Positions 7,666 through 49,789 of a stretch of DNA of 53,931 bases are shown one piece after another. The number at the start of each line of letters is the position of its first letter. The stretch's first letter is position 1. The stretch spans positions 1 through 53,931 of the forward strand of contig JBMORE010000182.1 in assembly GCA_049322255.1 (NCBI GenBank). Reading direction: 5' to 3'. Source of the DNA: Myxococcota bacterium. Its GTDB lineage: Bacteria > Myxococcota > Myxococcia > Myxococcales > Myxococcaceae. The translations under genes were made by a program, and so were the position numbers. Under the pieces are notes generated by a model. It was given only the letters and a program-made list of their open reading frames with translations, ran no database searches and had not been told where the DNA came from.

Positions 7666-9864
7666 CTATTCGGGGGTCAACCACACCACGGCCAGCGGGG
7701 GGAGGGTGAGCACAAGAGAGGCGGGCTGTCCGTCCCACGGCTTCTCCTCGGCGGTGACGCGCCCGAGGTTGCCCACGCCTGAGCCGCCGTACACGGAAGC
7801 GTCGGTGTTGAGGACCTCGAGGTACGCCCCTGCCTTGGGCACGCCGATGCGGTAGTCGGCACGTACCACCGGAGACAAGTTCGCCACGCATACGAGGTAT
7901 CGGCCGGCTTGGGAGCGGCGGAGAAATGCGTAGCAGTTTAAGTCTGCCGCGTCGGCCTGAATCCACTGGAAGCCTTCCGGCGCGAAGTCGAGCTCGTACA
8001 GCGCCGGCTCGGAGTGGTAGCGGTAGTTCAGGTCGGCCACCAGCGTCTGAACGCCGCGTTGCGGCGCATGATCGAGCAGGTGCCAGTCGAGGCTCTTGTC
8101 GTGGCTCCACTCCGCCTCTTGCCCAAGCTCGCCGCCCATGAAGAGCAGCTTCTTGCCCGGGTGGGCCCACATCCACCCGTAGAGCGCGCGTAGGTTGGCC
8201 AGCTTCTGCCAAGAGTCACCGGGCATTTTCCCCAAGAGCGAGCCCTTCCCATGCACCACCTCGTCGTGGCTGAGCGGCAAGACGAAGTGCTCGGTGAAGG
8301 CGTAGAGCAGCCCGAAGGTGAGCTGGTGATGGTGATAGCGGCGAAAGACCGGGTCCTTGGAGCAGTACTGGAGGGTGTCGTGCATCCACCCCATGTTCCA
8401 CTTGAAGGTGAAGCCCAGGCCTCCCTCCGCGGTGGGGCGGCTCACCTTGGGCCAGGCGGTCGACTCCTCGGCGATCGTCACCACGCCCGGATGTTTGCGG
8501 TGCACCACGTCGTTGAGCTCGCGCAAAAAGCCAATCGCTTCCTCGTTCTCTCGACCGCCGAAGCGGTTGGGCACCCATTCACCGGGAGCGCGGCTGTAGT
8601 CGCGGTAGAGCATCGAGGCCACCGCGTCCACCCGAAGGCCGTCGACGTGGTACTCCTCGAGCCAGAAGAGCGCGTTGGCGATGAGGAAGTTGCGCACCTC
8701 GTGGCGGCCGAAGTTGAAGATGAGCGTGCCCCAGTCGGGGTGCGCCCCCTGGCGCGGATCTTGGTGCTCGTACAGCGCAGTGCCGTCGAAGCTTCCCAAC
8801 GCGAAGGCGTCGCGCGGGAAGTGGCCGGGCACCCAGTCGACAATCACCCCGATGCCTTGCTGGTGGAGGTGATCGACGAGATGACGCAAATCGTCAGGGT
8901 GGCCGTAGCGCGCGGTGGGCGCGTAAAAAGCGCCGACTTGGTAACCCCAAGAACCGCCATAGGGGTGTTCAGAAACCGGGAGCAGCTCGACGTGCGTGAA
9001 GCCCATGGCCTTCACGTACTCACCCAACGCCGGCGCCAGCTCGCGGTAGGTGAGCGCGCGGTGGTCCTCCTCGACCCGGCGCCGCCAGGAGCCCAAGTGA
9101 ATTTCGTAGATGGACATCGGGCGATCGAGGGGGTGGGTTTTCTCGCGCTCGGCCATCCACTCCGCGTCGCCCCAGACGTAGTGACCAAGATCGTGGACGA
9201 CGGACGCCGTCTGCGGCGGAACCTCGGTGCGGAAGGCGAACGGGTCGGCCTTGAGCAGCATCGGCCCACCGTGCGAGGGCCGCACCTCGAACTTATAGCG
9301 GGTGCCCTCGGCGATCTCCGGCACGAAGAGCTCCCAGATGCCCGAGGCGCCCATGCGTCTCATCGGGTGAAGCCGGCCGTCCCAGCCGTTGAAGTCGCCC
9401 ACCACCGACACACCCGCGGCGCTGGGAGCCCATACCGCGAACGCCACTCCCGCCACGCCGTGGTGATGCGTCGGGTGCGCGCCGAGCTTCTCCCACAGCC
9501 GCTCATGCTTGCCCTCGCCGGCGAAGTACAGGTCCATCTCTCCCAGCGTGGGCAAGAAGCTGTAGGGATCTCGGAGGACGAAGGTGTTGCCCGCTGGGTA
9601 GCTCACCTCGAGCAGGTAGTCGAACACGTCGTTGCGGCCGTCGATATGCACCTCGAAGATGCCGCCCTTGCGGTGACTCATCGGAAGCTTGCCCCCGAAG
9701 TCGGGCAAGAGCTCGATGCGGCGGGCATCGGGGCGGAAGGCGCGCACCACCACGCCGCGGCCATCGCGGTGCACGCCGAGAACCGCATGGGGGTCGGAGT
9801 GCCGTAGCCCCAGCAGGTTGTCGATTTCCCCTTCGAGGTCTTTGCGCTCCGCTGAGGCCTTCAC
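7666..9864 (-). CDS. glgB: 1,4-alpha-glucan branching enzyme
   Basis: FAVWAP, YEIHLGSW, GSWGYQ, DWVPGHF, GLRVDAVASM, AEEST, SHDEVVHGK; GTG start overlapping upstream stop (GTGA). Confidence 0.97.
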   Translation of the reverse strand: MKASAERKDLEGEIDNLLGLRHSDPHAVLGVHRDGRGVVVRAFRPDARRIELLPDFGGKLPMSHRKGGIFEVHIDGRNDVFDYLLEVSYPAGNTFVLRDPYSFLPTLGEMDLYFAGEGKHERLWEKLGAHPTHHHGVAGVAFAVWAPSAAGVSVVGDFNGWDGRLHPMRRMGASGIWELFVPEIAEGTRYKFEVRPSHGGPMLLKADPFAFRTEVPPQTASVVHDLGHYVWGDAEWMAEREKTHPLDRPMSIYEIHLGSWRRRVEEDHRALTYRELAPALGEYVKAMGFTHVELLPVSEHPYGGSWGYQVGAFYAPTARYGHPDDLRHLVDHLHQQGIGVIVDWVPGHFPRDAFALGSFDGTALYEHQDPRQGAHPDWGTLIFNFGRHEVRNFLIANALFWLEEYHVDGLRVDAVASMLYRDYSRAPGEWVPNRFGGRENEEAIGFLRELNDVVHRKHPGVVTIAEESTAWPKVSRPTAEGGLGFTFKWNMGWMHDTLQYCSKDPVFRRYHHHQLTFGLLYAFTEHFVLPLSHDEVVHGKGSLLGKMPGDSWQKLANLRALYGWMWAHPGKKLLFMGGELGQEAEWSHDKSLDWHLLDHAPQRGVQTLVADLNYRYHSEPALYELDFAPEGFQWIQADAADLNCYAFLRRSQAGRYLVCVANLSPVVRADYRIGVPKAGAYLEVLNTDASVYGGSGVGNLGRVTAEEKPWDGQPASLVLTLPPLAVVWLTPE

Positions 9865-11198
9865 GGTGACACCGCGAGGAGCGTCTGCGCAGGGATTTTC
9901 ACCCAAGAAGGCCGGTTGTGAAGCTCGTAGCGCAGCTCATAGAGCGCCTTGTCCAGCTCGAAAGCGTCGAGCAAGGCCGCGAAGTCGGCCTCCTCGGAAG
10001 GGAGGAAGGCGGCGCCCCTGGTGGCTTTCCGGTAGCCCTCGAGGAAGGCGCGGCGGCAAAGCAGGGCGCGCTGGCCTTTGGGTCGTCCCGCGAGCTCGAC
10101 GGCCGCCTCGGCGTAGGAGAACGAACGGAGCATGCTGGCCACGTCTTTGAGTGGGGAGGTCATCTCTCGGCGTACGGAAAAGCTGCGGCCGGGCTCACCT
10201 TCGAAATCGAAGATGGTCCAGCCTCCCGTGCGGCCGGAGGTGACCAGCACCTGACCGAGGTGGAGATCGCCGTGTACCCGAATCTTCTGCCCCGATGCTT
10301 TCAGGTGAGCCAGCCTTCGGGCGCGCTCGGTGATTGCCGCTCGTCGAGTCGCCAGCTCGGGCACCGCCTTCTCGGCTTCGGAGACCACCACGCCCAACTC
10401 GCCGATGATGGAGGCGCTCCAGCGCTGCAGGTCCTCGGTGCCAATCGGCGTCGGCGCGAAGGCCGGGTCTTTTTCTTCCGAAGAAAGAACGCGGTGCAAG
10501 CTGCCCACGAGCTCGCCCAGCGCCAAAACTCGGGTGAGCACTTCCACGGGCGGCGTGACGAAGGAGCGAAAGGCGCCTTCGATGAAGGCCCACCCATCAC
10601 CTCGGTTGGGGACGAACTCGTGGGCCACCGCGATGGTCGACTCGGCGACCCCGAAGAAGCCCAACGAGCCCAACAGCTTGGGCACCCCTTCGAAGCCCTG
10701 CTGCAAGAGGAAGCGGCCCATCTCGATCTCCGGGTTCAGCCCGCTCTCCAGCTTGCGAATCACCTTGAGAATCACCTTGTCGTCGAAGATGACCGAGGTG
10801 TTGCTCTGCTCCACCGACACCCGCTTCACCGACGGAGCGGGCGGCAGCTCGCTCCATACGGAAGCAGAGCTGGGCTCGCGCTCGCCGCGCAGGGTCCCGC
10901 CTCCCGAGGGCAGCTTTTCCGCGTCGCGAATGAGCCGCAAAAGTCCGCGCGAAAGCTCGTCGTCCTCCAGCGCGTCATGGAACCGGCCCGTAGAGTCGAC
11001 CATTACGGGCAAGAGGTAGCGCTCGGGGTTGCCCAGCTCGTAGGCGACGTCAATCACCCCCAAGGTGAACGAGCCACGGCGGGTCTCCACCTGGGCGTGG
11101 TCGGCGACCGACACCTTCTTGATCGGCCAGGCCTTGCCGGCGAACCATCGACACGACCGAAGGTAGTCGGGCAGCTGCGTCAAGTCGGTGTGCTTCAC
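9861..11198 (-). CDS. Maltokinase (Mak/Pep2-like)
   Basis: [51 protein letters not shown]; position between treS and glgB with GTGA overlap. Confidence 0.9.
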
Positions 11199-39189: not shown

Positions 39190-40032
39190 ATGCGCGATGC
39201 CACGTTCATGACTTTGATGAGGCTCTTGCCCAAGTCGGCGCTCTCCAGCGCCGTCGGCCTGGCCGCGCGCGCGCCGGTTCCCCGTGGGCTGCATCGGGCT
39301 GCCATGCGCGTCTTCGCTCTCCGCTACGGCGTCGACATGGGCGAGGCCGAGCACGGCTTTTCGCACTACCCGACCTTCGCGCAGTTCTTCACCCGGCGGC
39401 TCAAACCCGGCCTGCGGCCCATCGACGGCGGCGAACGGGCCATCGTCTCTCCCGTCGACGGCACCGTCTCGCAGGCTGGTGACGCCGAGGGCGGCCGCTG
39501 TTTGCAGGCCAAGGGCATCTGGTTTCCTTTGGACAAGCTGTTGGGAGACGAAGAGGAAGCCGAGCGGTTCGCCGGGGGCACCTTCGCCACCCTGTACCTT
39601 TCGCCCAGGGACTACCACCGCATTCACGCTCCGGTGGACGGAGAAATCGTCGGTTACACCTATCTGCCAGGGCAGTTTTGGCCGGTGAACCCCGTCTCGG
39701 TGCGTTCCAAGGACGCCTTGTTTTGCCTCAACGAGCGTCTGGTGACGTACATCGCCAGCGCCGCGGGGAAGGTGGCCCTGGTGGCGGTGGGAGCGACCTG
39801 CGTGGCGCGCATCCACGCCGCGTACGACGACCTTTTGACCCACGCCGGCTCGCCGCGCAAAAGCCACTTCTACCCGACGCCCAAAAAGCTCACCAAGGGC
39901 GAGGAGGTGGCCATGTTCGAGATGGGCTCGACGGTGATTCTCCTCTTCGAGAAGGGCAGGGTGCGCTGGGATACCTCGGTGGTCGAGGGCGCCGTGGTTC
40001 GTGTCGGAGGGCGAATGGGGGAGCGCGTGTGA
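39190..40032 (+). CDS. psd: Phosphatidylserine decarboxylase proenzyme
   Basis: FFTRRLK, SPVDG, YLSPRDYHRIH, NER, cleavage site FEMGST. Confidence 0.95.
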   Translation: MRDATFMTLMRLLPKSALSSAVGLAARAPVPRGLHRAAMRVFALRYGVDMGEAEHGFSHYPTFAQFFTRRLKPGLRPIDGGERAIVSPVDGTVSQAGDAEGGRCLQAKGIWFPLDKLLGDEEEAERFAGGTFATLYLSPRDYHRIHAPVDGEIVGYTYLPGQFWPVNPVSVRSKDALFCLNERLVTYIASAAGKVALVAVGATCVARIHAAYDDLLTHAGSPRKSHFYPTPKKLTKGEEVAMFEMGSTVILLFEKGRVRWDTSVVEGAVVRVGGRMGERV

Positions 40033-41288
40033 GCCAGAAGTTCTCCGGCCCCAAGGGGATGAACGACCTGCTCCCGGGCGAGGTCGAGCTGTGGCAACAC
40101 CTCGAGCGCACCGCCAGGGAGGTGTTCGGCCGCTACGGCTACGGCGAGGTGCGCACCCCGATGGTGGAGGACACGGGACTCTTCGTGCGCAGCGTGGGCG
40201 AGACGACCGACATCGTGGGCAAGGAGATGTACACCTTCGCGGACAAGGGCGGCCGCTCGCTCTCGCTGCGCCCCGAAGGCACCGCCCCCGCCGCCCGGGC
40301 GTACATCGAGCACGCCGTGTTTCAGAAAGAGCCGGTGACGCGCTGGTACTACCTGGGCCCGATGTTCCGCTACGAGCGGATGAAGACCGGCCGCTACCGG
40401 CAGTTCTCGCAGATCGGCGCCGAGGCGTACGGCGTCGAGGGGCCCGGTCAGGACGTCGAGCTGATGGAGATGGTGGTCCACTTCCTCGGCCGCCTGGGCC
40501 TTACTGGCGTGTCGTTGCAGCTCAACTCCTTGGGCGATGACGCCTGCCGCCCCTCGTTCGTGGCCACGCTGGTGGAGTACTTCTCGGCCCATCGTGAAAA
40601 GCTGTGCGCCGACTGTCAGGAGCGCCTTTTGCGCAACCCTTTGCGCGTGCTCGACTGCAAGAACGAGCGGTGCCAGGAGCAGGCCCGCGGCGCCCCCCGC
40701 ATGCTCGAGCTGTTGTGCCAGCCGTGCCAGGCGCACTTTTCCGAGGTACGTCGGCAGCTGGAGCTTTTGGGCGTGCGCTATGAGCTCAACCCCCGCATGG
40801 TGCGCGGCCTCGACTACTACACCCGCACCGCGTTCGAGCTCATCGCCGAGCACCCGGTCTTGGGCACCGCCAGCGCTGTCGGCGGCGGTGGGCGCTACGA
40901 CAAGCTGGTCAAACAGCTGGGAGGCCCCGAGGTGCCCGCGGTGGGTTTTGCCCTGGGCGTCGACCGCCTGGTGCTGCTCCTCCGGGAGTCGGGGCAGACG
41001 TTCGCCGCCAAGCCCGACCTCTTTCTGGTCGCCGTCGATTCCAAGGCGCAGGACGAAGCGCTCCGCTGCGTCACCCAACTTCGCCACGCGGGCCTGTGGG
41101 CCGAGCTCGACGTGCGCGGAGGGAGCGTGAAGAGCCAGATGAAGCGGGCAGACAAGAGTGGCGCCCACTACGCGCTCGTGTTGGGCGAGCGGGAGTTGGC
41201 CGAAGGAGCGGCAGAGCTCAAACCCATGGCCGGGGGCGAGGGGCGAAAGGTGAAGCTCGTCGAGCTGGAAGCGGCGCTCAAGAAGTGA
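40029..41288 (+). CDS. hisS: Histidine--tRNA ligase
   Basis: KEMYTF, LRPEGTA, FRYER, GRYRQF, RGLDYY, GGGRYD; GTGA overlap. Confidence 0.97.
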   Translation: MSQKFSGPKGMNDLLPGEVELWQHLERTAREVFGRYGYGEVRTPMVEDTGLFVRSVGETTDIVGKEMYTFADKGGRSLSLRPEGTAPAARAYIEHAVFQKEPVTRWYYLGPMFRYERMKTGRYRQFSQIGAEAYGVEGPGQDVELMEMVVHFLGRLGLTGVSLQLNSLGDDACRPSFVATLVEYFSAHREKLCADCQERLLRNPLRVLDCKNERCQEQARGAPRMLELLCQPCQAHFSEVRRQLELLGVRYELNPRMVRGLDYYTRTAFELIAEHPVLGTASAVGGGGRYDKLVKQLGGPEVPAVGFALGVDRLVLLLRESGQTFAAKPDLFLVAVDSKAQDEALRCVTQLRHAGLWAELDVRGGSVKSQMKRADKSGAHYALVLGERELAEGAAELKPMAGGEGRKVKLVELEAALKK

Positions 41289-41455: not shown

Positions 41456-41740
41456 GTGACATTTTCACCTGATTTCGTTCCCCGCCGCGTGGAAGGCACG
41501 GAGGCCAGCCGTCTGGGAGCCGACTTCGTGCTCCTCGACTCTGCGGGGAAGATGCTTCGCGGGCTCAACGCCACCGGCGCGAAAGTGTGGGAGCTCATCG
41601 ACGGCTGCCGTTCGGCGGAGGAGATCGCCGCCCACCTGGCATCAGACGCTGGGGCTCCCCTGGAGCGCGTGCGCCCCGACGTGTTGTCTTTCCTCGGGCA
41701 GCTGTTCGACAGGAGGCTGGTGACCGGGGGTGGGCGATGA
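41456..41740 (+). CDS. PqqD-family protein / stand-alone RiPP recognition element
   Basis: VLLD...LNATGAKVWELIDGCRSAEEIAAHL...DVLSFLGQL..RRLV; GGAG RBS before GTG. Confidence 0.9.
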   Translation: MTFSPDFVPRRVEGTEASRLGADFVLLDSAGKMLRGLNATGAKVWELIDGCRSAEEIAAHLASDAGAPLERVRPDVLSFLGQLFDRRLVTGGGR

Positions 41741-42231
41741 AGCGGCGTGTCGTTCTCTCCTTGTGTGTGCTCGCGGCGGCGTGCGTTGTACCTCCCGAGG
41801 CGTCCTGGGAGACTGCCCCCGCCGAGGGCCTCACCGAGGAGGCAGTGCCCACCTGGCAGGTTCCGCTGTACCGCACCGGGTGGGTTCCTCCGCTCGAGCC
41901 TCCGCCGCCTGGGTGTGAGGCCGAGCTCGTCTTCGATCCCCCCGCCCAATCGAGCGTGGGCGAGGTGCGCCAGCTGCTCATCGGCTTGAGCGTGACCGGG
42001 GCCGAGGCGCAAAGCGAGCTCGCTCTCGAATGGGTCGCTCCGGCGGGAATCGTCTTCCAGCGAGCGGCGCAGCGGCTGTCGGGCTCACCGTTCGATGAGC
42101 AACGCGCAAGCTTCGGGATGCCGGTCGCCGGCACGGCGATCGACTCCAACAGCTTGTGGGGAACGTGGACCGTGCGGTGCCAACTCAACGGCGTGGAATT
42201 GGCTACCCGTCACTTCGAGCTGACTCCATGA
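41737..42231 (+). CDS. Lipoprotein, hypothetical, Ig-like C-terminus
   Basis: MKRRVVLSLCVLAAAC lipobox; GTWTV...NG...FEL beta-sandwich ending; ATGA overlaps on both sides. Confidence 0.75.
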   Translation: MKRRVVLSLCVLAAACVVPPEASWETAPAEGLTEEAVPTWQVPLYRTGWVPPLEPPPPGCEAELVFDPPAQSSVGEVRQLLIGLSVTGAEAQSELALEWVAPAGIVFQRAAQRLSGSPFDEQRASFGMPVAGTAIDSNSLWGTWTVRCQLNGVELATRHFELTP

Positions 42232-44285
42232 AAGCGCACGCAATCATGGTCATGGCTGTGCTGTGCCCGGCGGCCACGCTCGCCGATACGAACATCACTG
42301 TCGATGGAAATGACCCTGACTGGGCGGCAGTCACTTCTTGCATCAATGAGCCCACCGGTGATGGCCGAACGGGCATCGACCTCATTCGGGTCTGCGTGGA
42401 GAACAACAACACCGCGGGGAGCAACGGCTACCTCTTCAGCCTTTATGAATTGAAGTCCGCCCGACCGACGAACACCGACACCTATTTCGGGGTCTTCATC
42501 GACAAGAACGACGACGGGCAGGTCAGCTCGGCCGACGAAGTGTGGGCGTTCCACTACCGTTCCAACAACCGCACTCCCTTGCTCGAGGTCTACGATCCGG
42601 TGAGTTTCGCCCTGCGGCGCACCTATACGAGCACCGCCGACTGTGGGGGGGCTGGAACGGACAACGGCTGGAGCACCGCCGCCACCACCAAAATCGTGGA
42701 GGGACGGGTCAGCTACGGTTGCCTCGGCCTCACGTACGGCGACGACACGCGCCTCATCCAGCTGGGGGTGTTTCCCAACTTCGACGTCACCTCCCAGGTC
42801 TATTACGACGGCACCAGCGGCACGGTGACGGCGGCGGCGCCCCCGGCCGACGTGTCCAACCTGGTGGCGATCTCCAAGGCCAACGCCAACGTGCTGGTGT
42901 GGAACAACCCGACCCAGCACGAGGGAGTGCTCGTGCTTCGTGCGGCAAGCGCTGCCCCCAATGCCGCGCCGGTCAAGGGGACGACCTACACCGTGGGCCA
43001 AACCCTGGGCAACGCGACCGTGGCGTATTCCGACGCGGACGGCAGTACGGCGAGCTCGTTCACCGACTCCGGGCTCACCAACGGCACCCGCTACTACTAC
43101 AAGGTCTACAACCACCATCAGCACCACACCTACGCGAGCGGCAACGTGCCTTCGAGCTCGGGCATCTTCTCCGAGCCCACCTCGCGTTCGGGCAGCTCAC
43201 CTCAGTGGTGCTACAGCTTCGGCTTCCCCAGCCTTCAGCGCCCGACCACCGAGTCGAACGCAGCGGTCTTCACTTCCAGCCAACTCGGCGCGGTGACCGC
43301 CAGCCGCACCGACACTGGTAACGCCACCAATGACGGTCTGGAGCGCTTCCGCCCCGTGCAACTGTCGGGCGCGGTGCAGGCGCGCTTCCCCTTGCTCGAT
43401 CTGGTCGGCCACACCGGGAAGCACATCGTCACCGGAGACCAGTCGGGCAGGGTGTATGCGATCAGCGCCCAGACCGGCGCCCTCACCTGGACGGCCAACG
43501 GCGGCGCGGCGCTCGGCAACGCGATTCAGCACTTCGTGATGCCCCACTCGACCAGCGGTACCGCCCCGTGGGATCGGCTCCTCGTCGGTACTCGCAACAG
43601 CAGCACCACCAACAACCAAGTCTTCGCGCTCTCGAGCAGCGACGGCGCAGTGTTGTGGACCTACTCGCCCGGCAACCTGGACATCATCAGCGGCGGCATG
43701 GTGCTCCACGCGGGGAGGGTCTACGTGCCCGCGCGCTCGGGGGGAGGTACCTCTCCCTCGTTGCGGGTGCTCGACGCCCTTTCCGGCACCGAGGTGACGA
43801 CGCTCTCTGGTCTGGGCGACCTCGACTACGATCTCAACAAAGACCTCGGCGGGCTCCTCTACGCCACGAGCACTGCGGGCATGGTGCACGGCGTCGACAT
43901 GGCCACCCACACCGTGCGTTGGAGCTTCAACGCCGGCGCCACCTCCGCTCCGGTGTTCGTCACCGGCAACGGCTTCGTCGCCAGTCTCAAGAGCGGCACC
44001 GTACGGCGCTACATGGTCAGCGGCACCACCGTCACCGAGCTGTGGTCGACGCCGATTGCGAACCCGACGGGAGTGGTGACCTATTTCCCACCCTCGGGGA
44101 GCGCCAAGTACTTCGTCGGTAGCTCCGATGGGAGGGTCTACAAGCTGAACACCGGAACCGGCGCCATCGAGGCGCAGCTTGCCGTGTCCAGCCTCGGAGT
44201 CGGCATGCCTACCATCGATTCGGCGGCGGCGAGGCTTCACGTGGGCACGTTCGACGGCCGGCTCTGCTCGTTCACCCTTCCCTGA
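42228..44285 (+). CDS. Large exported protein: N-terminal beta domain, fibronectin-III-like domain, PQQ-type beta-propeller repeats
   Basis: Signal peptide; ITVDGNDPDW; FTDSGLTNGTRYYYKVY; repeats GRVYAISAQTGALTW, VFALSSSDGAVLW, DGRVYKLNTGTG. Confidence 0.85.
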   Translation: MKAHAIMVMAVLCPAATLADTNITVDGNDPDWAAVTSCINEPTGDGRTGIDLIRVCVENNNTAGSNGYLFSLYELKSARPTNTDTYFGVFIDKNDDGQVSSADEVWAFHYRSNNRTPLLEVYDPVSFALRRTYTSTADCGGAGTDNGWSTAATTKIVEGRVSYGCLGLTYGDDTRLIQLGVFPNFDVTSQVYYDGTSGTVTAAAPPADVSNLVAISKANANVLVWNNPTQHEGVLVLRAASAAPNAAPVKGTTYTVGQTLGNATVAYSDADGSTASSFTDSGLTNGTRYYYKVYNHHQHHTYASGNVPSSSGIFSEPTSRSGSSPQWCYSFGFPSLQRPTTESNAAVFTSSQLGAVTASRTDTGNATNDGLERFRPVQLSGAVQARFPLLDLVGHTGKHIVTGDQSGRVYAISAQTGALTWTANGGAALGNAIQHFVMPHSTSGTAPWDRLLVGTRNSSTTNNQVFALSSSDGAVLWTYSPGNLDIISGGMVLHAGRVYVPARSGGGTSPSLRVLDALSGTEVTTLSGLGDLDYDLNKDLGGLLYATSTAGMVHGVDMATHTVRWSFNAGATSAPVFVTGNGFVASLKSGTVRRYMVSGTTVTELWSTPIANPTGVVTYFPPSGSAKYFVGSSDGRVYKLNTGTGAIEAQLAVSSLGVGMPTIDSAAARLHVGTFDGRLCSFTLP

Positions 44286-44386
44286 AGCTTACGTGGACCA
44301 TGCGCGGACCTTCGCCGTTTGGCGCGTGTGGGACACCTCAGTTACCCTTTCATTTCCTTGATAGGGCCTCGGACAGGGAACAATCT

Positions 44387-44521
44387 GTGAGCGTGCGCGG
44401 CGCCGAAGAGCCCTACGAGCCTCCCGCCATCCTGTGGGAGGAAGAGTTCGTGGCCCTGGCTCAGGTGTCCGACCCCGACATCTGCCAGCAGCCTGACCCA
44501 CCTCCGCAATGCCTCGAGTGA
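44387..44521 (+). CDS. 44-aa RiPP-precursor-like peptide
   Basis: AGGGA upstream of GTG; MSVRGAEEPYEPPAILWEEEFVALAQVSDPDICQQPDPPPQCLE; stop overlaps next start (GTGA). Confidence 0.7.
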   Translation: MSVRGAEEPYEPPAILWEEEFVALAQVSDPDICQQPDPPPQCLE

Positions 44522-45306
44522 GCCGATTCGCCATCGGCCGCCTCACCCTCGAGCTCTCGGTTCCCAGCACCTCGACGGCGGCGACACTTTTCGAACGGTG
44601 GGGCCGCTTCGCCGACGCTGGCGTGCCCCGAACCCGGGTGGAGGTGATTCTTTCGGGAAAAATCGCCCACGCGGGGCCTCGACACATGCCCCTCGTCGAA
44701 ACCGCTTCGGGTGGAGGGGTGTCGCTCCACGGGGAAGACTTCGTGGCCACGGTGTCCCCCGATCGAAAGCACGTCGAGCTGCGGCAGGCGGACACGCGGT
44801 ACCCGATCGAAGCGGTAGCCAAGTGGCTCTTGGCCGATGCGCTCGCGCCGACGCAGGGCTTGCTCGTGCACGGCGTCGGCATTGCTTTCAGCAATCAGGC
44901 ATTTGTTTTCGTCGGGCCCTCCGGCGCGGGGAAGAGCACCCTGGCGGCCTTGTGCCAAAACGAGGGCATGACGCTCTTGGCCGACGAGTTGGTGGCGCTC
45001 GAACGGGCGCCAAACGGTGGTTTTGTCGTGCAGGGCACTCCTTGGAATTCGGGTTCACCCATGCGTGCCTGGCTGTGTGAGCTCGGCACGTTGGCCTGGG
45101 GAGCGGCGCACCGCCTGGAATCGTTAGGAGCGGCGGAGCTTTTGCGCACGCTCTTGCCCAACACACTCCTCGCCGATCCTTCGCCACCAGGACGGGCGGC
45201 GGCTTTCCGCGCCGCCTCCGCGCTGCTCACCGAGGTTCCAGCGAAGACGCTCACGTTCGCTCGCAAAAACGGGCTTGGGGCGCTGCTTGCCGGGGAGCTT
45301 CCGTGA
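44518..45306 (+). CDS. HPr-kinase-like (HprK-related) P-loop kinase
   Basis: LLVHGVGI...FVGPSGAGKSTL...LLADELVAL...GTPW: His, Walker A and acidic-pair motifs of the HprK/PEPCK fold. Confidence 0.85.
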   Translation: MSRFAIGRLTLELSVPSTSTAATLFERWGRFADAGVPRTRVEVILSGKIAHAGPRHMPLVETASGGGVSLHGEDFVATVSPDRKHVELRQADTRYPIEAVAKWLLADALAPTQGLLVHGVGIAFSNQAFVFVGPSGAGKSTLAALCQNEGMTLLADELVALERAPNGGFVVQGTPWNSGSPMRAWLCELGTLAWGAAHRLESLGAAELLRTLLPNTLLADPSPPGRAAAFRAASALLTEVPAKTLTFARKNGLGALLAGELP

Positions 45307-46205
45307 AGCCGGAGCTCTTCGTGATCGCCGGCCCCACCGCGTCCGGCAAGACGTCGGCGGCGATCACGCTCGCCGAACGATGGGGAGCGGAGATCGTCAG
45401 CGCCGACTCGCAACAGGTTTACCGGCACTTCGACATCGGTACCGCCAAGCCGTCGCCGGAGCAGCTTCAGCGTGTCCCCCACCACTTGATCTCGATCGTC
45501 GAACCCAACGAGCCCTTCTCGGCGGCACGTTTCCAGGCGTTGGCCGACGAGGCGATCGCCGGCATCGTCAGCCGTGGCCGACGGGTGCTGGTGGTGGGTG
45601 GGACGGGGCTGTACGTGCGGGTGCTTCTGCACGGGGTCGCCGTAGCTCCCGGCTCAGACCCGGCGTTGCGCGCGCGCCTTGCGGAAGAGGCGCGAGCCAT
45701 CGGCCGGGAAGCGCTCCACCGGCGGCTGGCCGACATCGACCCGCAAACGGCGGCGCAGGTCAAGCCGAGAGACCTTTTGCGCGTCATCCGCGCCCTGGAA
45801 ATCCACGCGCGAACGGGCACCCCCGCATCAATCCATCGTGCCGCGCACCGCTTCGAAGAGGATCGCTACCCCCACCGGCTTTTCGTCCTGAGCCCTCCGC
45901 GCAAGACGCTCTACGCCGCGATCGACCACCGCACCGAGGCGATGTTCGAAGCGGGCCTGGTCTCCGAGGTGCGCGGGCTGTTGGCGCGGGGCTTTCGCGA
46001 CGCGCCGCCGATGCGCAGCGTGGGCTACGCGCAGGCCCTGGCGGTGGTCGAAGGGCGCATGTCCCTCCCAGAGGCGATCGGCGAGGCGGCGCAGAAGACT
46101 CGCCACTACGCCAAGCGCCAGCTCACCTGGTTCAAGAAGGAGAGGGGTGCCCGGCGGGTGGAAAGCCCCGAAGCGCTCCTCGCGTCGGTCCTCGGTTCAC
46201 CTTGA
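45303..46205 (+). CDS. miaA: tRNA dimethylallyltransferase
   Basis: GPTASGKT, SADSQQVY, DIGTAKP, VGGTGLY, RALEI, YAKRQLTWF. Confidence 0.97.
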   Translation: MKPELFVIAGPTASGKTSAAITLAERWGAEIVSADSQQVYRHFDIGTAKPSPEQLQRVPHHLISIVEPNEPFSAARFQALADEAIAGIVSRGRRVLVVGGTGLYVRVLLHGVAVAPGSDPALRARLAEEARAIGREALHRRLADIDPQTAAQVKPRDLLRVIRALEIHARTGTPASIHRAAHRFEEDRYPHRLFVLSPPRKTLYAAIDHRTEAMFEAGLVSEVRGLLARGFRDAPPMRSVGYAQALAVVEGRMSLPEAIGEAAQKTRHYAKRQLTWFKKERGARRVESPEALLASVLGSP

Positions 46206-47844
46206 GAGTGGCGTCGACGGCGCACGTGCCCGTCAAGACCGCCCACAGCACCGAAGCGTCGATGGGCTTGGGAAAAAACGCCTCGGCCCCTGCTGCGAGT
46301 GCCCGAGCGCGCACGTGCGGACGATCGAGACCGCTGGTGACGAGCACTCGCACCCCGCACGTGAGCGGGTGATGCTTGAGCCCCTCGCACAGACGCAACC
46401 CATCGACCCAGGAAAGGACCACGTCGATAACCACTGCCGCTGGAGGCCGGCGCGCGACCGCCGCGAAGAGCGCCAGCTCATCGGAGAAAGAGACGACCTC
46501 GGCCCCTCGCTCCTCGAGGTAGCGCGACAGCGCCTGGCATACCTCGGCATCGTCGTCGACCACGTAGACGAGGTTGGGCTCGGCTGGCACCGGGCTTACG
46601 TTCAGAGGAGCCGGGGTGAGAAGGGCCGAGCGCACCGACTCCCACAGACCCGCCGACCGGGCACAAGCCAACACGCGTCGCGGGGAGGGCGACAGAAGGC
46701 CCAATACCCCTGACCCACTCGGCGAGTGCGCTTCGCTCTTTTGTGCGCGCGCGAAGACCTTGGGAGCGCGTGCCCTCGCTCTGCGCAGCCACTTCAGCGC
46801 CCGCGCCCCGGTGGTCGCTGCATCGATCAACTCGGCCACTCCCTCGCGCGCGTAGCGGCGGGCCAGCTGCCTCGGGTCGACGCCCCCCTCGACGAGGGCC
46901 GCTGCGGCGCGGGTGCAAGTGGCAAGCGTCTGTGAGACACCGAGCGCGAGCGGGTGGCCCATCGCCGCCGGCCCCACCGCCAGCCGGCCCAAGGCAGTCA
47001 GCTGGCGGCTTGCGCCGAAGGCGAGCCGCGACATGCGAACGGCGGCGACGCTGAAGCTGGTAGGGAGGAATCCATCGCGGGCGGCCACCATCAGCGCGTA
47101 GCCCAGCGCGGCCTGGTCCACCCCCGGCCCGAAGGCCACCGCATGCACCGCTCCGCCACAGGGCAGAAGGTAGAGCCCGTCGACACCTGCGGCAGGGAAG
47201 AGCAAGAGGGTGGCGACCTCGCGCCGCGCCGTGCGTAGCCGAGGCGGCCCGTCGGAGACGATCCGCGCATGGGCAGCGCGAAGGGTGGGAGGACCAGCGA
47301 AAGAGGGGAAGAAGCGAGGGCCCAAGAGTGCGCCATGCCCCGTCGCCAGCACCACCGCGTGAAAGCGTCCCGGTCGCCGAGAGCTCACCACCAACGTGGG
47401 CTCCGCCGGCGCGGTGGACGGCACGTGATCGACACGGTCGATTCGCCCCGACACGAAGCGCGCGCCGTGCAGAGACGCCGTGGCGCAGAGCGCGCGACGA
47501 AGGAGCTCCCGTGGCGCTCTTTGTCCGTGGTGGTCGAGCACCCACAGCCCTCCGGGAGGCGCTTCGAGGCGAGCCCGCTCTCGGCCATAGGCGACTTCCA
47601 CCGCCTCGAGCGCGCCGCTGCACCATTGCGGCGGCACGCGGCAGCCGAGCGCCGACAGCCGTGAGCGGCACTCAGGGGTGAGCACCACAGGCGCCGCGGG
47701 CGCAGCGTCGCCCTCGAACAGGGTGAGGTCCAGCGAGCGCCCGCGGGCACGCGCGGCGTTGAAGAGCGCCACCGCCATCGCTGCTCCGGTGAGCCCACTC
47801 CCCCCTATGGCCACAGAAGCCCCGGCGCGCAGCCCACCCATCAC
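46132..47844 (-). CDS. Flavoprotein-like (FAD Rossmann) domain fused to a C-terminal receiver domain
   Basis: VAIGGSGLTG...LFE, VVLATG; C-terminal VVDDD, VIDVVLSWVDG, VTSG, FPKP. Confidence 0.75.
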   Translation of the reverse strand: MMGGLRAGASVAIGGSGLTGAAMAVALFNAARARGRSLDLTLFEGDAAPAAPVVLTPECRSRLSALGCRVPPQWCSGALEAVEVAYGRERARLEAPPGGLWVLDHHGQRAPRELLRRALCATASLHGARFVSGRIDRVDHVPSTAPAEPTLVVSSRRPGRFHAVVLATGHGALLGPRFFPSFAGPPTLRAAHARIVSDGPPRLRTARREVATLLLFPAAGVDGLYLLPCGGAVHAVAFGPGVDQAALGYALMVAARDGFLPTSFSVAAVRMSRLAFGASRQLTALGRLAVGPAAMGHPLALGVSQTLATCTRAAAALVEGGVDPRQLARRYAREGVAELIDAATTGARALKWLRRARARAPKVFARAQKSEAHSPSGSGVLGLLSPSPRRVLACARSAGLWESVRSALLTPAPLNVSPVPAEPNLVYVVDDDAEVCQALSRYLEERGAEVVSFSDELALFAAVARRPPAAVVIDVVLSWVDGLRLCEGLKHHPLTCGVRVLVTSGLDRPHVRARALAAGAEAFFPKPIDASVLWAVLTGTCAVDATLKVNRGPTRGALRGFPPAGHPSPS

Positions 47845-48914
47845 GCGTGGCGCGGCGGCTCTGCCGCTTCCTCTTCGAGCACCACCACCCGGCCACGTCC
47901 GCGGCGCTTGGCTTGATTGAGCGCCGTGTCCGAGGCCTCGAGCAGCTCGCTCGCGCTGGCCCGAGACGCTTCGCGGCTGTGCCCGGCGATGCCCACGCTG
48001 ACGCTGATGGGCAAAAGCTCGCCACCCGGCAGCTCGATCGGCTGCAGCGTGCGGCGCAGACGGTCGGCGAACACTCCTGCCTCGAGCGGTTGCTGGTGAG
48101 GGAGAATGACCACGAACTCGTCGCCTCCGAAGCGGGCGGCGAAGTCCGACTCACGCAGGTTGGCGCCCAGGTGCTTCGCCAGCGCCAAGATGGCACGGTT
48201 ACCCGCCTCATGGCCGAAGCGGTCGTTGATGTCTTTGAGGTGATCGAGATCGATCGTCACCACCGAGACAGGATGGCCGTAGCGCACCGCCCGATGAAAC
48301 TCCGCCTCTACCCGCTCGGCGAGCGCGCGGAAGTTCGCCAGCCCGGTGAGGGCGTCGGTCTGCGCCAGCGCCTGCAAGGCGCGCCGTTCGCGACCGTCGC
48401 GGACCGTGCGGTGAATGCGCGCCAGAAGCTCCCGTGCCCGAGCCGAGCGCGGAAGGTAGTCGGCCGCGCCCTGGTCAAGACAGGCAGCGGCGAGATCCTC
48501 ATTGGCCGTCGAGACGACGATCACCGGCACCTGCTCACGGCGGGCGTCGGAGAAGAGCCGCGACAGATCGGCCACGTCCTCGACCGAGGTCAGCGGTACG
48601 TCGAGGAGGAGCAACTCGGGGCCCTCCGCTCGCAGTCGCGCCCGGGCCTCCTCGGCGTCGCGCGCGTACCGCACCTCGAGGTCTGGCGCGAGCAGCTGGT
48701 CGAGCGGAACCTGCGTCGTTCCCACCTCCTCGAGCACCAGCACGTGGGCATGCTCCAGATTGCCCGCAAATGGCAGACCGGTGGTCTCGGAGGCCCCGCC
48801 CACGGAGATTTCCAAACCCTCGCGCCCCACGCGCTCCCCGTCGCCCGACCCCAAGGAAAATCTCCTCCGACGACTCACCGACCCAACCGCCGAGACCCCC
48901 GGCTGCCAACTCAT
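47841..48914 (-). CDS. Receiver-GGDEF diguanylate cyclase
   Basis: TDALTGLAN, DLDHLK, RESD I-site, RFGGDEF; atypical receiver; start uncertain. Confidence 0.88.
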   Translation of the reverse strand: MSWQPGVSAVGSVSRRRRFSLGSGDGERVGREGLEISVGGASETTGLPFAGNLEHAHVLVLEEVGTTQVPLDQLLAPDLEVRYARDAEEARARLRAEGPELLLLDVPLTSVEDVADLSRLFSDARREQVPVIVVSTANEDLAAACLDQGAADYLPRSARARELLARIHRTVRDGRERRALQALAQTDALTGLANFRALAERVEAEFHRAVRYGHPVSVVTIDLDHLKDINDRFGHEAGNRAILALAKHLGANLRESDFAARFGGDEFVVILPHQQPLEAGVFADRLRRTLQPIELPGGELLPISVSVGIAGHSREASRASASELLEASDTALNQAKRRGRGRVVVLEEEAAEPPRHA

Positions 48915-49054
48915 TTCCACGAGCGGTGTCCCGAGCAAGGGGTGTGCCTCTAGATGCCCGGCGGAAACGACGCGATGCTCGGCCTTTGAAGTGTTGTCTC
49001 GCCCTGCGGTGCAATACGCACAGGAGAAATTGCACAGCCGGCGGAAAAGCGACC

Positions 49055-49789
49055 CTAGCGACGCTGGAACCGCACCTGGCGTCCGCCTCCTTGGGTAGGC
49101 AGCGGGGGCGTCTCCAACCCGAAGCTCCACCACATCGGCTCGAACGGCTTCATCTTGAGCTTCTTGTCGTTCTGCAAGGCGGTGAGGCCGGCCTTGAGCC
49201 GATCGTCGCTGGGGTTGGCCTCCACGGCCCGGGCCATCACCTTCAGCGCCTTGTCCTTTTCCTTGAGCTGGGTCAGGCACCAGGCGTAGGCGGCCCACAC
49301 CAGGCCCTCCTTTTTGCCGCTCTTCACCGCCGCCTCGAACTTCTTTTCCATGTCGCCGTAGGACTTCCTCTGAAAGAAGAGCGCACCTTGGAGCGCCAGC
49401 GACATGTAGTCGCGCGCGTTGGCCTTGGCGAAATGTTCTTGGGCGCCGTCGAAGTCCTTGAGCATGTATTTGATTTGACCGATGGCGCCGTGCACCTGGG
49501 ACTCGACCAGGAACTGCCATTTGCCCAACGGCAGCGCCGACTCGAAGATCTTGATCGCCTTCTCTGCCTTCGCCTTCTGGTCCTTGGGGTTGGTCGCCTG
49601 GCCGAGCAGCGCATGGGCTTCTTCGGAGAGGGCCTGCATACGCTTGAACACGCGCCGGGCGAGCACGATGTAGGTCGCCAAGAAGGTGATGGTGCCGGGA
49701 ATGATACCGGCCAAAAGCGAGAAGCCGGCGAGACGCACTCCCAAGGCGAGGGCGAGACCGGCGGCGAAGGCGATGAGCAGGTTGTACAT
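49055..49789 (-). CDS. Membrane-anchored TPR-like protein
   Basis: AAGGAG RBS, two N-terminal TM segments, Ala/Lys-rich TPR-like helices. Confidence 0.8.
   Translation of the reverse strand: MYNLLIAFAAGLALALGVRLAGFSLLAGIIPGTITFLATYIVLARRVFKRMQALSEEAHALLGQATNPKDQKAKAEKAIKIFESALPLGKWQFLVESQVHGAIGQIKYMLKDFDGAQEHFAKANARDYMSLALQGALFFQRKSYGDMEKKFEAAVKSGKKEGLVWAAYAWCLTQLKEKDKALKVMARAVEANPSDDRLKAGLTALQNDKKLKMKPFEPMWWSFGLETPPLPTQGGGRQVRFQRR

Follow-up and report, generated by a model that had tools for sequence, protein, structure and literature searches.

The 53,931 nt stretch analysed here (hereafter the window; contig JBMORE010000182.1 of assembly GCA_049322255.1, from a bacterium of the family Myxococcaceae) carries, between the housekeeping genes hisS and miaA, a cassette of five genes. 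They encode a PqqD-family recognition element of the kind that serves peptides made on the ribosome and modified after their translation (RiPP recognition element, RRE), a lipoprotein, an exported beta-propeller protein, a putative precursor peptide and an HprK-like kinase. The features of the locus are the following.

39190-40032, + strand: psd, upstream of hisS
40038..41288, + strand: hisS, the left housekeeping flank (TIGR00442, 486.7 bits)
41456..41740, + strand: stand-alone PqqD-family RRE of 94 residues (PF05402, 55.8 bits)
41737..42231, + strand: small lipoprotein of 164 residues, with a Cys-bearing signal peptide, a Pro-rich linker and a C-terminal beta-sandwich-like domain
42228..44285, + strand: exported protein of 685 residues, with a signal peptide, an Fn3-like sandwich and an eight-bladed BamB-like beta-propeller (PQQ_2, 42.8 bits)
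44387..44521, + strand: putative precursor peptide of 44 residues (GTG at 44387) or 73 residues (ATG at 44300), found in 32/34 relatives' loci
44509..45306, + strand: HprK/ScmC-like P-loop kinase of 265 residues (ATG at 44509) or 262 residues (GTG at 44518), assigned by its AlphaFold2 (AF2)/Foldseek fold
45303..46205, + strand: miaA, the right flank (TIGR00174, 269.2 bits)

The original prediction, made from the letters of the window, had described five co-oriented + strand genes between hisS and miaA, the first three chained by ATGA overlaps and the peptide gene coupled to the kinase gene by GTGA. All five are present at the positions listed, and the junctions were read directly in the sequence: ATGA at 41737 is the overlap between the PqqD and lipoprotein genes, ATGA at 42228 that between the lipoprotein and propeller genes, and GTGA at 44518 combines the stop of the peptide with the alternative GTG start of the kinase. 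The public gene call also starts the kinase at this GTG (44518). A fourth junction, GTGA at 45303, overlaps the kinase stop with the miaA start, so that the chain of overlaps continues into the housekeeping gene; in a relative devoid of the kinase (G201), miaA begins 4 bases after the peptide gene. A promoter and terminator scan gave no promoter and four terminator-like sites, versus 3.3 expected by shuffling.

Loci around the kinase gene were examined in 34 relatives (here and below, counts come from samples of related, non-independent genomes). The order propeller-peptide-kinase was kept in 31 of them. A motif search placed the peptide directly upstream of the kinase in 31/34 loci, and a WxxP variant of it stands behind the propeller gene of G008, which gives 32/34 overall; in G008 the kinase gene is inverted, yet the peptide remains behind the propeller gene. 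At G006 and G160 no peptide was found at the kinase locus, and peptides are present there on other contigs. Downstream, miaA lies within 1.5 kb in 28 of the 34 loci, and in the larger loci psd-hisS is upstream of the cassette. In most of these loci the peptide and propeller genes co-occur with the kinase, a point on which the original prediction had proposed to check the kinase neighbourhood.

The small open reading frame might nevertheless be a chance frame in GC-rich DNA. Neither its short nor its 73-residue form matches a family (for the latter, Pfam searched to an E of 1 gave nothing above cut-off), and its start codon is uncertain; the relatives' peptides start 9 to 29 residues before the Tyr of the motif described below. 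However, besides its recurrence in 32/34 loci, alignment of 17 distinct peptides from kinase-bearing loci revealed seven invariant residues (Y10, P13, W17, F21, A25, S28 and C33) and the consensus YEPPAILWEQPFVALAQISxCxIPGxxECxP. The 19-codon leader block was compared in 30 distinct DNA versions, whose differences numbered 1088, 656 and 2679 at codon positions 1, 2 and 3, respectively; this third-position bias shows coding selection. Moreover, an orthologue of identical sequence is annotated in public records as a 48-residue hypothetical protein, and orthologues occur in genomes whose proteins are recorded under cultured Corallococcus species. The conservation data contradict a chance frame, to which we give next to no weight, and on their account the peptide is a real gene, kept under purifying selection.

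In the window, the leader of the peptide ends in ...YEPPAILWEEEFVALA and reads, numbered from the Tyr, Y1-E-P-P4-A-I6-L7-W-E-E-E-F-V-A-L-A16/Q-V-S19, where the slash is the predicted cut. This cut is placed after the invariant Ala (A25), in an Ala-x-Ala context which in the window is Ala-Leu-Ala, and would release the predicted core QVSDPDICQQPDPPPQCLE, 19 residues long and with two Cys. Cores of the relatives have 15-20 residues, mostly of the form C-x-IPGESE-C, and that of the window (DPDICQQPDPPPQCLE) is the most divergent of those aligned. Two Cys, 5 to 8 residues apart, are found in every core seen; such a pair suggests that the core forms a disulfide loop and would therefore reside outside the cytoplasm.

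The PqqD/RRE call, for which confirmation by profile hidden Markov models had been proposed, was upheld: the protein scores well over the PF05402 cut-off of 23.4 bits, and a profile of seven orthologues matches the lasso-peptide RRE TbiB1 (5v1u, E 1.8e-9) and LppB (9x8z_B, E 4.8e-8), the true PqqD (3g2b) ranking behind both (E 1.1e-5). With the PqqD equivalog TIGR03859 it reaches 26.6 bits, below the cut-off of 46, and its neighbours in the cassette are not pqq genes (pqqB/C/E were not searched genome-wide). Its score with ScmD (TIGR04248) is 17.1 bits, for a cut-off of 100. Two residues, N38 and D75, are invariant among the aligned orthologues and align with an Asn and an Asp of LppB chain 9x8z_B.

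The kinase has, by its model, the HprK/PEPCK fold. The AF2 model has a pLDDT of 93.3, and Foldseek matched it to PEPCK (6com, E 8e-8) and HprK/P (2qmh_B, E 9.6e-6). At the sequence level, its profile matches the Lactobacillus casei HprK/P (1jb1, E 2.9e-4), with H121, the P-loop and D159-E160 aligning with the MHG, GDSGVGKS and ADD segments of that enzyme. The Walker A motif is GPSGAGKST (P-loop G136-T144, G136 being near-invariant), and H121, S138-L145 (A140 only near-invariant), D159, E160, T177 and P178 are invariant. The kinase and 21 of 27 sequence homologues carry Pfam PF27840, named ScmC by the Atlas, a membership that is a precomputed assignment only. Homologues in public records are named 'hypothetical protein [Myxococcaceae bacterium]'. 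Among the matches listed in a P-loop pattern search for distant HprK-like kinases, none of them from Myxococcaceae, 7/13 have a PqqD gene beside or near them. Such pairs are familiar from the SynChlorMet cassette, where an HprK-like P-loop protein (ScmC) is paired with the PqqD-like ScmD, plus the ScmE/ScmF radical SAM pair. The cassette of the window resembles SynChlorMet, HPr-rel-A and GAK systems in pairing an HprK-like P-loop protein with a PqqD-like protein, and shares PF27840 with ScmC; it differs from them in that its proteins fall below all curated cut-offs.

The original prediction knew of no characterised system with this make-up. One relative has been characterised, the linear polyphosphorylated peptide (LPP) family of Bacillota, described for Paenibacillus alginolyticus (Popov et al., Nat Commun 2026, PMC13381572). 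Its clusters encode a precursor (LppA), an RRE (LppB), an HprK-like kinase (LppK), an archaeal-type signal-peptidase-like enzyme (LppS), an MsbA-like exporter (LppD) and an NTP-transferase (LppN). LppA carries the motif YxxPxVLxHQxIxFETxxS and is cut after T-1, and its core Ser3 is polyphosphorylated, the target in paeninodin being a C-terminal Ser; D70 of LppB holds Tyr-16 of LppA, and N33 holds Pro-13 (PMC13381572). The paper states that LPPs are restricted to Bacillota, with a patchy distribution and an unknown biological role. In its SpI supplementary table (PMC13381572 Supplementary Data 1), Myxococcota account for 4/199 rows, none from Myxococcaceae and none classed as LPP; rows 174-175, from Chondromyces apiculatus, report a signal-peptidase-like gene near a kinase-RRE fusion of at least 419 residues, in which an HprK-like kinase is joined to a PqqD-like C-terminus and which is listed only as 'RRE other'. 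A 2025 RRE survey (PMC12710340) mentions, in the passages searched, neither kinases nor signal peptidases, and a literature search (HPr kinase or HprK with PqqD, RiPP, RRE or Myxococcus; orthologue identifiers) returned no paper on this myxobacterial cassette.

The window peptide follows the register of LppA: Y-16, P-13, V or I at -11, L-10 and core Ser3 match, and the distance from Tyr to Ser is 18 residues in both. The likeness further includes an RRE that is discrete, of the lasso type and equipped with the Asn/Asp pair of LppB, an HprK-like kinase and the lack of a recognised cyclase; the window kinase is likened to LppK by its own HprK/PEPCK fold and conserved motifs, not by direct sequence comparison. 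In relatives only, it extends to a soluble Ser/His signal-peptidase-like leader peptidase of the S24/S26 type. Indeed, an S24 peptidase of 136-142 residues (PF00717, 31.8 bits; GxSMxP and HRV invariant, GDN near-invariant) is encoded immediately upstream of the RRE in 9/13 relatives' loci, its presence being judged on the 13 that have the RRE and enough upstream sequence. An uncultured Clostridia contig bears a kinase-RRE-S24 cluster whose peptidase is also matched by the profile of this S24 peptidase, and the kinase profile matches the kinase of such a Clostridia cluster with an E of 1.7e-15. The RRE likely binds the YxxPx[IV] leader motif of the small peptide.

Judged by sequence comparison, the cassette belongs with the LPP-like RiPP systems, as a reduced form found in a myxobacterium and thus outside Bacillota, and as such it is not unprecedented. 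The central claim of the original prediction, that an RRE, a precursor and an HprK-like kinase form a RiPP-like set linked with exported proteins, was borne out in comparative terms by the conserved peptide, its YxxPx[IV] motif, the Asn/Asp pair of the RRE and the kinase fold. As for the mechanism, we lean slightly towards the following scheme. The RRE would bind the YxxPxI leader motif through Y10 and P13 and present the peptide to the HprK/ScmC-like kinase, which would phosphorylate Ser28 (core Ser+3), three residues after the Ala-Leu-Ala signal-peptidase-type site. The leader would be removed after Ala25 by a signal-peptidase-like enzyme. In most relatives this would be the LppS-like Ser/His S24 peptidase whose gene lies just upstream of that of the RRE; in the window genome the cut might be made by an enzyme from contig C32, where a second cassette includes an S24 fusion. 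The cassette extends the LPP leader logic (YxxP, predicted signal-peptidase-type cut, Ser+3) to Myxococcaceae, where it encloses two exported-protein genes at a fixed housekeeping position and comes in two paralogous versions per genome.

The second cassette (L028 2660-9986) repeats the layout around a different propeller protein. Its features are the following.

L028:2660-3025: PqqD
To 8367: lipoprotein of about 1770 residues, with Ig-like and FG-GAP propeller repeats
8355-8528: Cys-rich YxxPxL peptide of 57 residues, its gene overlapping the lipoprotein gene
About 8681-9286: HprK-like kinase
9231-9986: S24 peptidase fused to an extra C-terminal domain

Its kinase is 33.5% identical to that of the window over 173 residues (tblastn), and the S24 fusion of this type was present in 5/5 relatives tested.

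The cassette of the window also differs from the LPP clusters. The cut site is ALA/Q, versus FET/x in LPPs; the core is short with two Cys, and two exported-protein genes stand between the RRE and the precursor. Its position is fixed between hisS and miaA within one family, in contrast with the patchy distribution of LPPs. Finally, it is devoid of an NTP-transferase, of an MsbA-like exporter and, at the locus of this genome, of the peptidase, that is, of three of the six LPP genes.

Several observations, set out in this and the following paragraphs, weigh against the LPP-like reading. In the leader, the HQ, I and FET of LppA (in the motif quoted above) are replaced by EE/EQ, F and ALA. The kinase scores 31.7 bits with HprK_rel_A (TIGR04352) and 22.2 bits with HprK_rel_B (TIGR04355, GAK), both for a cut-off of 200, and does not match ScmC TIGR04249. 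The predicted target Ser+3 is a Thr in the kinase-bearing G093, and it is kept in the kinase-less G013. In the four kinase-less peptides, the AQxS motif is lost in two, Thr stands at +3 in one and Ser is kept in one. These data hint that Ser+3 goes with the kinase, in a pattern that is not clean.

A second group of such observations concerns the missing enzymes. The locus of the window genome has no leader peptidase: the S24 gene is absent there, as it is at G020, G016, G093 and G132, and the 168 bases of the hisS-PqqD spacer contain no S24 remnant detectable by tblastn to an E of 1. The only LppS-like peptidase of this genome is the S24 fusion of the C32 cassette. NTP_transf_5 (PF14907), which we take to be the Pfam family of LppN (the text of the LPP paper names no family), matched only on contig C104 and, weakly, on C133, so that no LppN-type transferase is linked to the cassette. 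On C104, the two NTP_transf_5 genes (L074 6795-7712 and 8288-9469, - strand) belong to a polysaccharide locus: their flanking genes encode a UDP-glucose dehydrogenase, an epimerase and a GT4 glycosyltransferase, and a UbiA-family prenyltransferase is encoded just beyond; this setting recalls the capsule-locus setting of the Bacillota LPP clusters, and no link to the cassette was found. MsbA-type ABC_membrane matches were limited to C103, C149 and C11, and no exporter is linked either.

A possible explanation for these gaps is that the cassette of the window genome is a decaying, non-functional remnant of a full cluster running from S24 and RRE to the kinase. The peptidase of 9/13 relatives is missing, the gap left between hisS and PqqD bears no trace of it, the core is the most divergent, and the propeller protein has 685 residues versus about 1020 in most relatives. 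Such decay is clearly unlikely, as the five frames are intact and overlapping and all the invariant residues of peptide, RRE and kinase are kept. In addition, the S24-less G020, G016 and G132 also keep the rest of the cassette, and the S24 fusion of the second system is present in the window genome as well as in the 5/5 relatives tested. The minimal state noted in the original prediction is derived or incomplete, given the S24 gene of most relatives' loci.

The other possibility put forward was one half of a split pathway, of the lasso-peptide or radical-SAM type, with the maturases encoded elsewhere in the genome. Some traits point that way: the RRE is closest to lasso B1 proteins (TbiB1), the kinase carries PF27840 (ScmC), and one SPASM gene exists, on C166. 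Paeninodin-type lasso systems resemble the cassette in three respects: their RRE is of the B1 type, their leader carries a [Y/W]xxP motif, and a Ser of their precursor is the target of an HprK-like kinase (PMC13381572). The cassette differs from them in that no cyclase was seen with it, the genome gave no B2 family hit, and the Ser predicted as target stands at core position 3 and not C-terminally. The window genome (4.85 Mb in 196 contigs) is 99.6% complete and gave no match to the lasso B2 protease family PF13471; the cyclase family was not searched. Its single SPASM radical SAM gene (L083 4855-6159) is closest to nif11/GDL-type maturases, below all cut-offs, and has an unrelated neighbourhood; a weak match to the gliding lipoprotein CglB (45 bits, cut-off 200) follows two genes downstream. 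The best ScmE match reaches 103 bits versus 400, on another contig, and the ScmE/F radical SAM partner was not found. No such enzyme was present in the relatives' cassette neighbourhoods examined, which were scanned with cassette-protein profiles only. Since the maturases are absent or unlinked, the split pathway is not supported, and we consider it highly improbable. The original prediction had recognised in the window no B2 protease, radical SAM enzyme, nucleotidyltransferase, S24/S26 peptidase or exporter, and this holds for the contig; it had also named pqqBCE and the lasso cyclase, which were not searched.

The last observations that weigh against the LPP-like reading come from the distribution of the genes. 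Kinase orthologues (E <= 1e-20) were found in 65/301 genomes sampled from the order, all in the family of the window, namely in 64/145 family relatives, 0/155 genomes of other families and 13/72 genera. In a phylum sample (E <= 1e-15), 67/171 family genomes had the kinase, and two other families gave one weak match each. The propeller family is more widespread, being present in 99/201 family genomes and 27/51 genera. Eight propeller loci were chosen, not as a random sample, from genomes without a kinase orthologue. In four of them (G009, G013, G182 and G201), the RRE, the lipoprotein, the propeller and a two-Cys YxxP peptide are kept, so that peptide and RRE are retained there without the kinase, and the cassettes of G182 and G201 occupy the same hisS...miaA site. 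In the other four (G265, G291, G023 and G212), the lipoprotein-propeller pair stands alone, with no peptide nearby. Furthermore, three genera have the lipoprotein-propeller pair on one contig and the peptide genes on another, the split sets being S24-RRE-peptide in G160, RRE-peptide-kinase in G093 and S24-RRE-kinase in G006. From these kinase-less and split loci, neither the kinase nor the physical linkage to the propeller gene is obligatory.

The main rival explanation follows from these loci. In it, the persistent unit is RRE, lipoprotein, propeller and peptide, and phosphorylation is optional or irrelevant; the RRE would hold or escort the peptide, or else regulate the exported pair, and the kinase would have another substrate or tune the system. 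The four kinase-less cassettes, two of them at the unchanged chromosomal site, and the wider spread of the propeller family both speak for it. We rate it as unlikely on the whole, because known stand-alone RREs recruit enzymes (PMC13381572) and because the start of the kinase abuts or overlaps the stop of the peptide in at least 10/28 loci measured (nearest start, a heuristic choice). Moreover, all 17 peptides aligned from loci with the kinase have Ser+3, whereas AQxS is lost in 2/4 kinase-less ones. Two points are new in the present data: even in the four kinase-less relatives the RRE, lipoprotein, propeller and peptide are kept as a set, and the paralogous cassette on C32 repeats the layout around a different propeller protein.

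To return to the LPP-like reading, it leaves the two exported proteins to be placed. The lipoprotein begins with MKRRVVLSLCVLAAAC... and matches no family (in the family libraries and in Pfam to an E of 1, nothing was above cut-off; the Atlas gives unnamed clusters only), and its alignment shows a conserved PVAGTxID...GxW motif. Its gene lies beside every propeller copy examined. In G016, a single 676-residue lipoprotein (L029, 1194-3224, - strand) combines the lipoprotein with the Fn3-propeller protein, a fusion which argues that both exported proteins work together. Some relatives have a second lipoprotein paralogue upstream of the RRE (L081 625-1359, L096, L099), and two lipoprotein-propeller pairs occur in several genomes (G006, G093, G160).

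For the 685-residue protein, the Fn3/propeller call of the original prediction was upheld as to the propeller. PQQ_2 scores above its cut-off of 27.6 bits, the AF2 model is confident over residues 210-685 (pLDDT about 90), with a beta-sandwich followed by an eight-bladed propeller, and the best PDB folds are those of BamB (3q7m, E 6.8e-19, TMt 0.74). The Fn3 part is less direct: it shows only as a weak Pur_ac_phosph_N match at residues 219-298 and as the confidently modelled beta-sandwich. Residues 1-203 have a pLDDT below 50 and are unmodelled, and Pfam to an E of 1 gave nothing above cut-off for the N-terminal 211 residues or for the 540-residue N-terminus of a relative. Two Cys of the protein, C328 and C680, are invariant. 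The likeness to BamB consists of the eight-bladed PQQ_2-type propeller (TMt 0.70-0.76, 19-22% identity). The protein differs from BamB by a TIGR03300 score of 39.8 bits, versus an equivalog cut-off of 285.2, by the extra Fn3-like domain and N-terminal region, by a signal peptide instead of a lipobox, and by its gene context.

A more speculative step of the scheme places the released two-Cys core outside the cytoplasm, where it would serve the lipoprotein and the BamB-like propeller as ligand or partner, because the RRE, lipoprotein, propeller and peptide genes stay together in kinase-less relatives. A precedent by analogy only is QhpC, the small subunit of quinohemoprotein amine dehydrogenase: this Cys-rich peptide has a leader, is modified after translation and finally joins an exported beta-propeller subunit as its partner. 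A radical SAM enzyme, a subtilisin-like protease and a dedicated ABC exporter take part in maturing QhpC, and the cassette is linked to no gene for any of them. In this extended form, Myxococcaceae would have inherited vertically a RiPP module whose peptide, bound by the RRE, looped by a disulfide and phosphorylated in most lineages, is the dedicated partner of the co-encoded lipoprotein and propeller; we rate this as somewhat improbable. If it were true, a ribosomal peptide would be a subunit, ligand or assembly factor of an envelope protein, and not a secreted antibiotic, and a first functional handle on the LPP family would be at hand. The kinase-less natural variants are ready-made controls, and the Corallococcus orthologues make the link between peptide and propeller directly testable.

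Two minor observations complete the description of the window and its genome. The genome has 14 MYXO-CTERM matches over cut-off, versus none in 14 control genomes. Downstream, two long open reading frames lie on the - strand (46132-49520 of the window), and the second (47841-49520) has a GGDEF motif after a receiver-like region.

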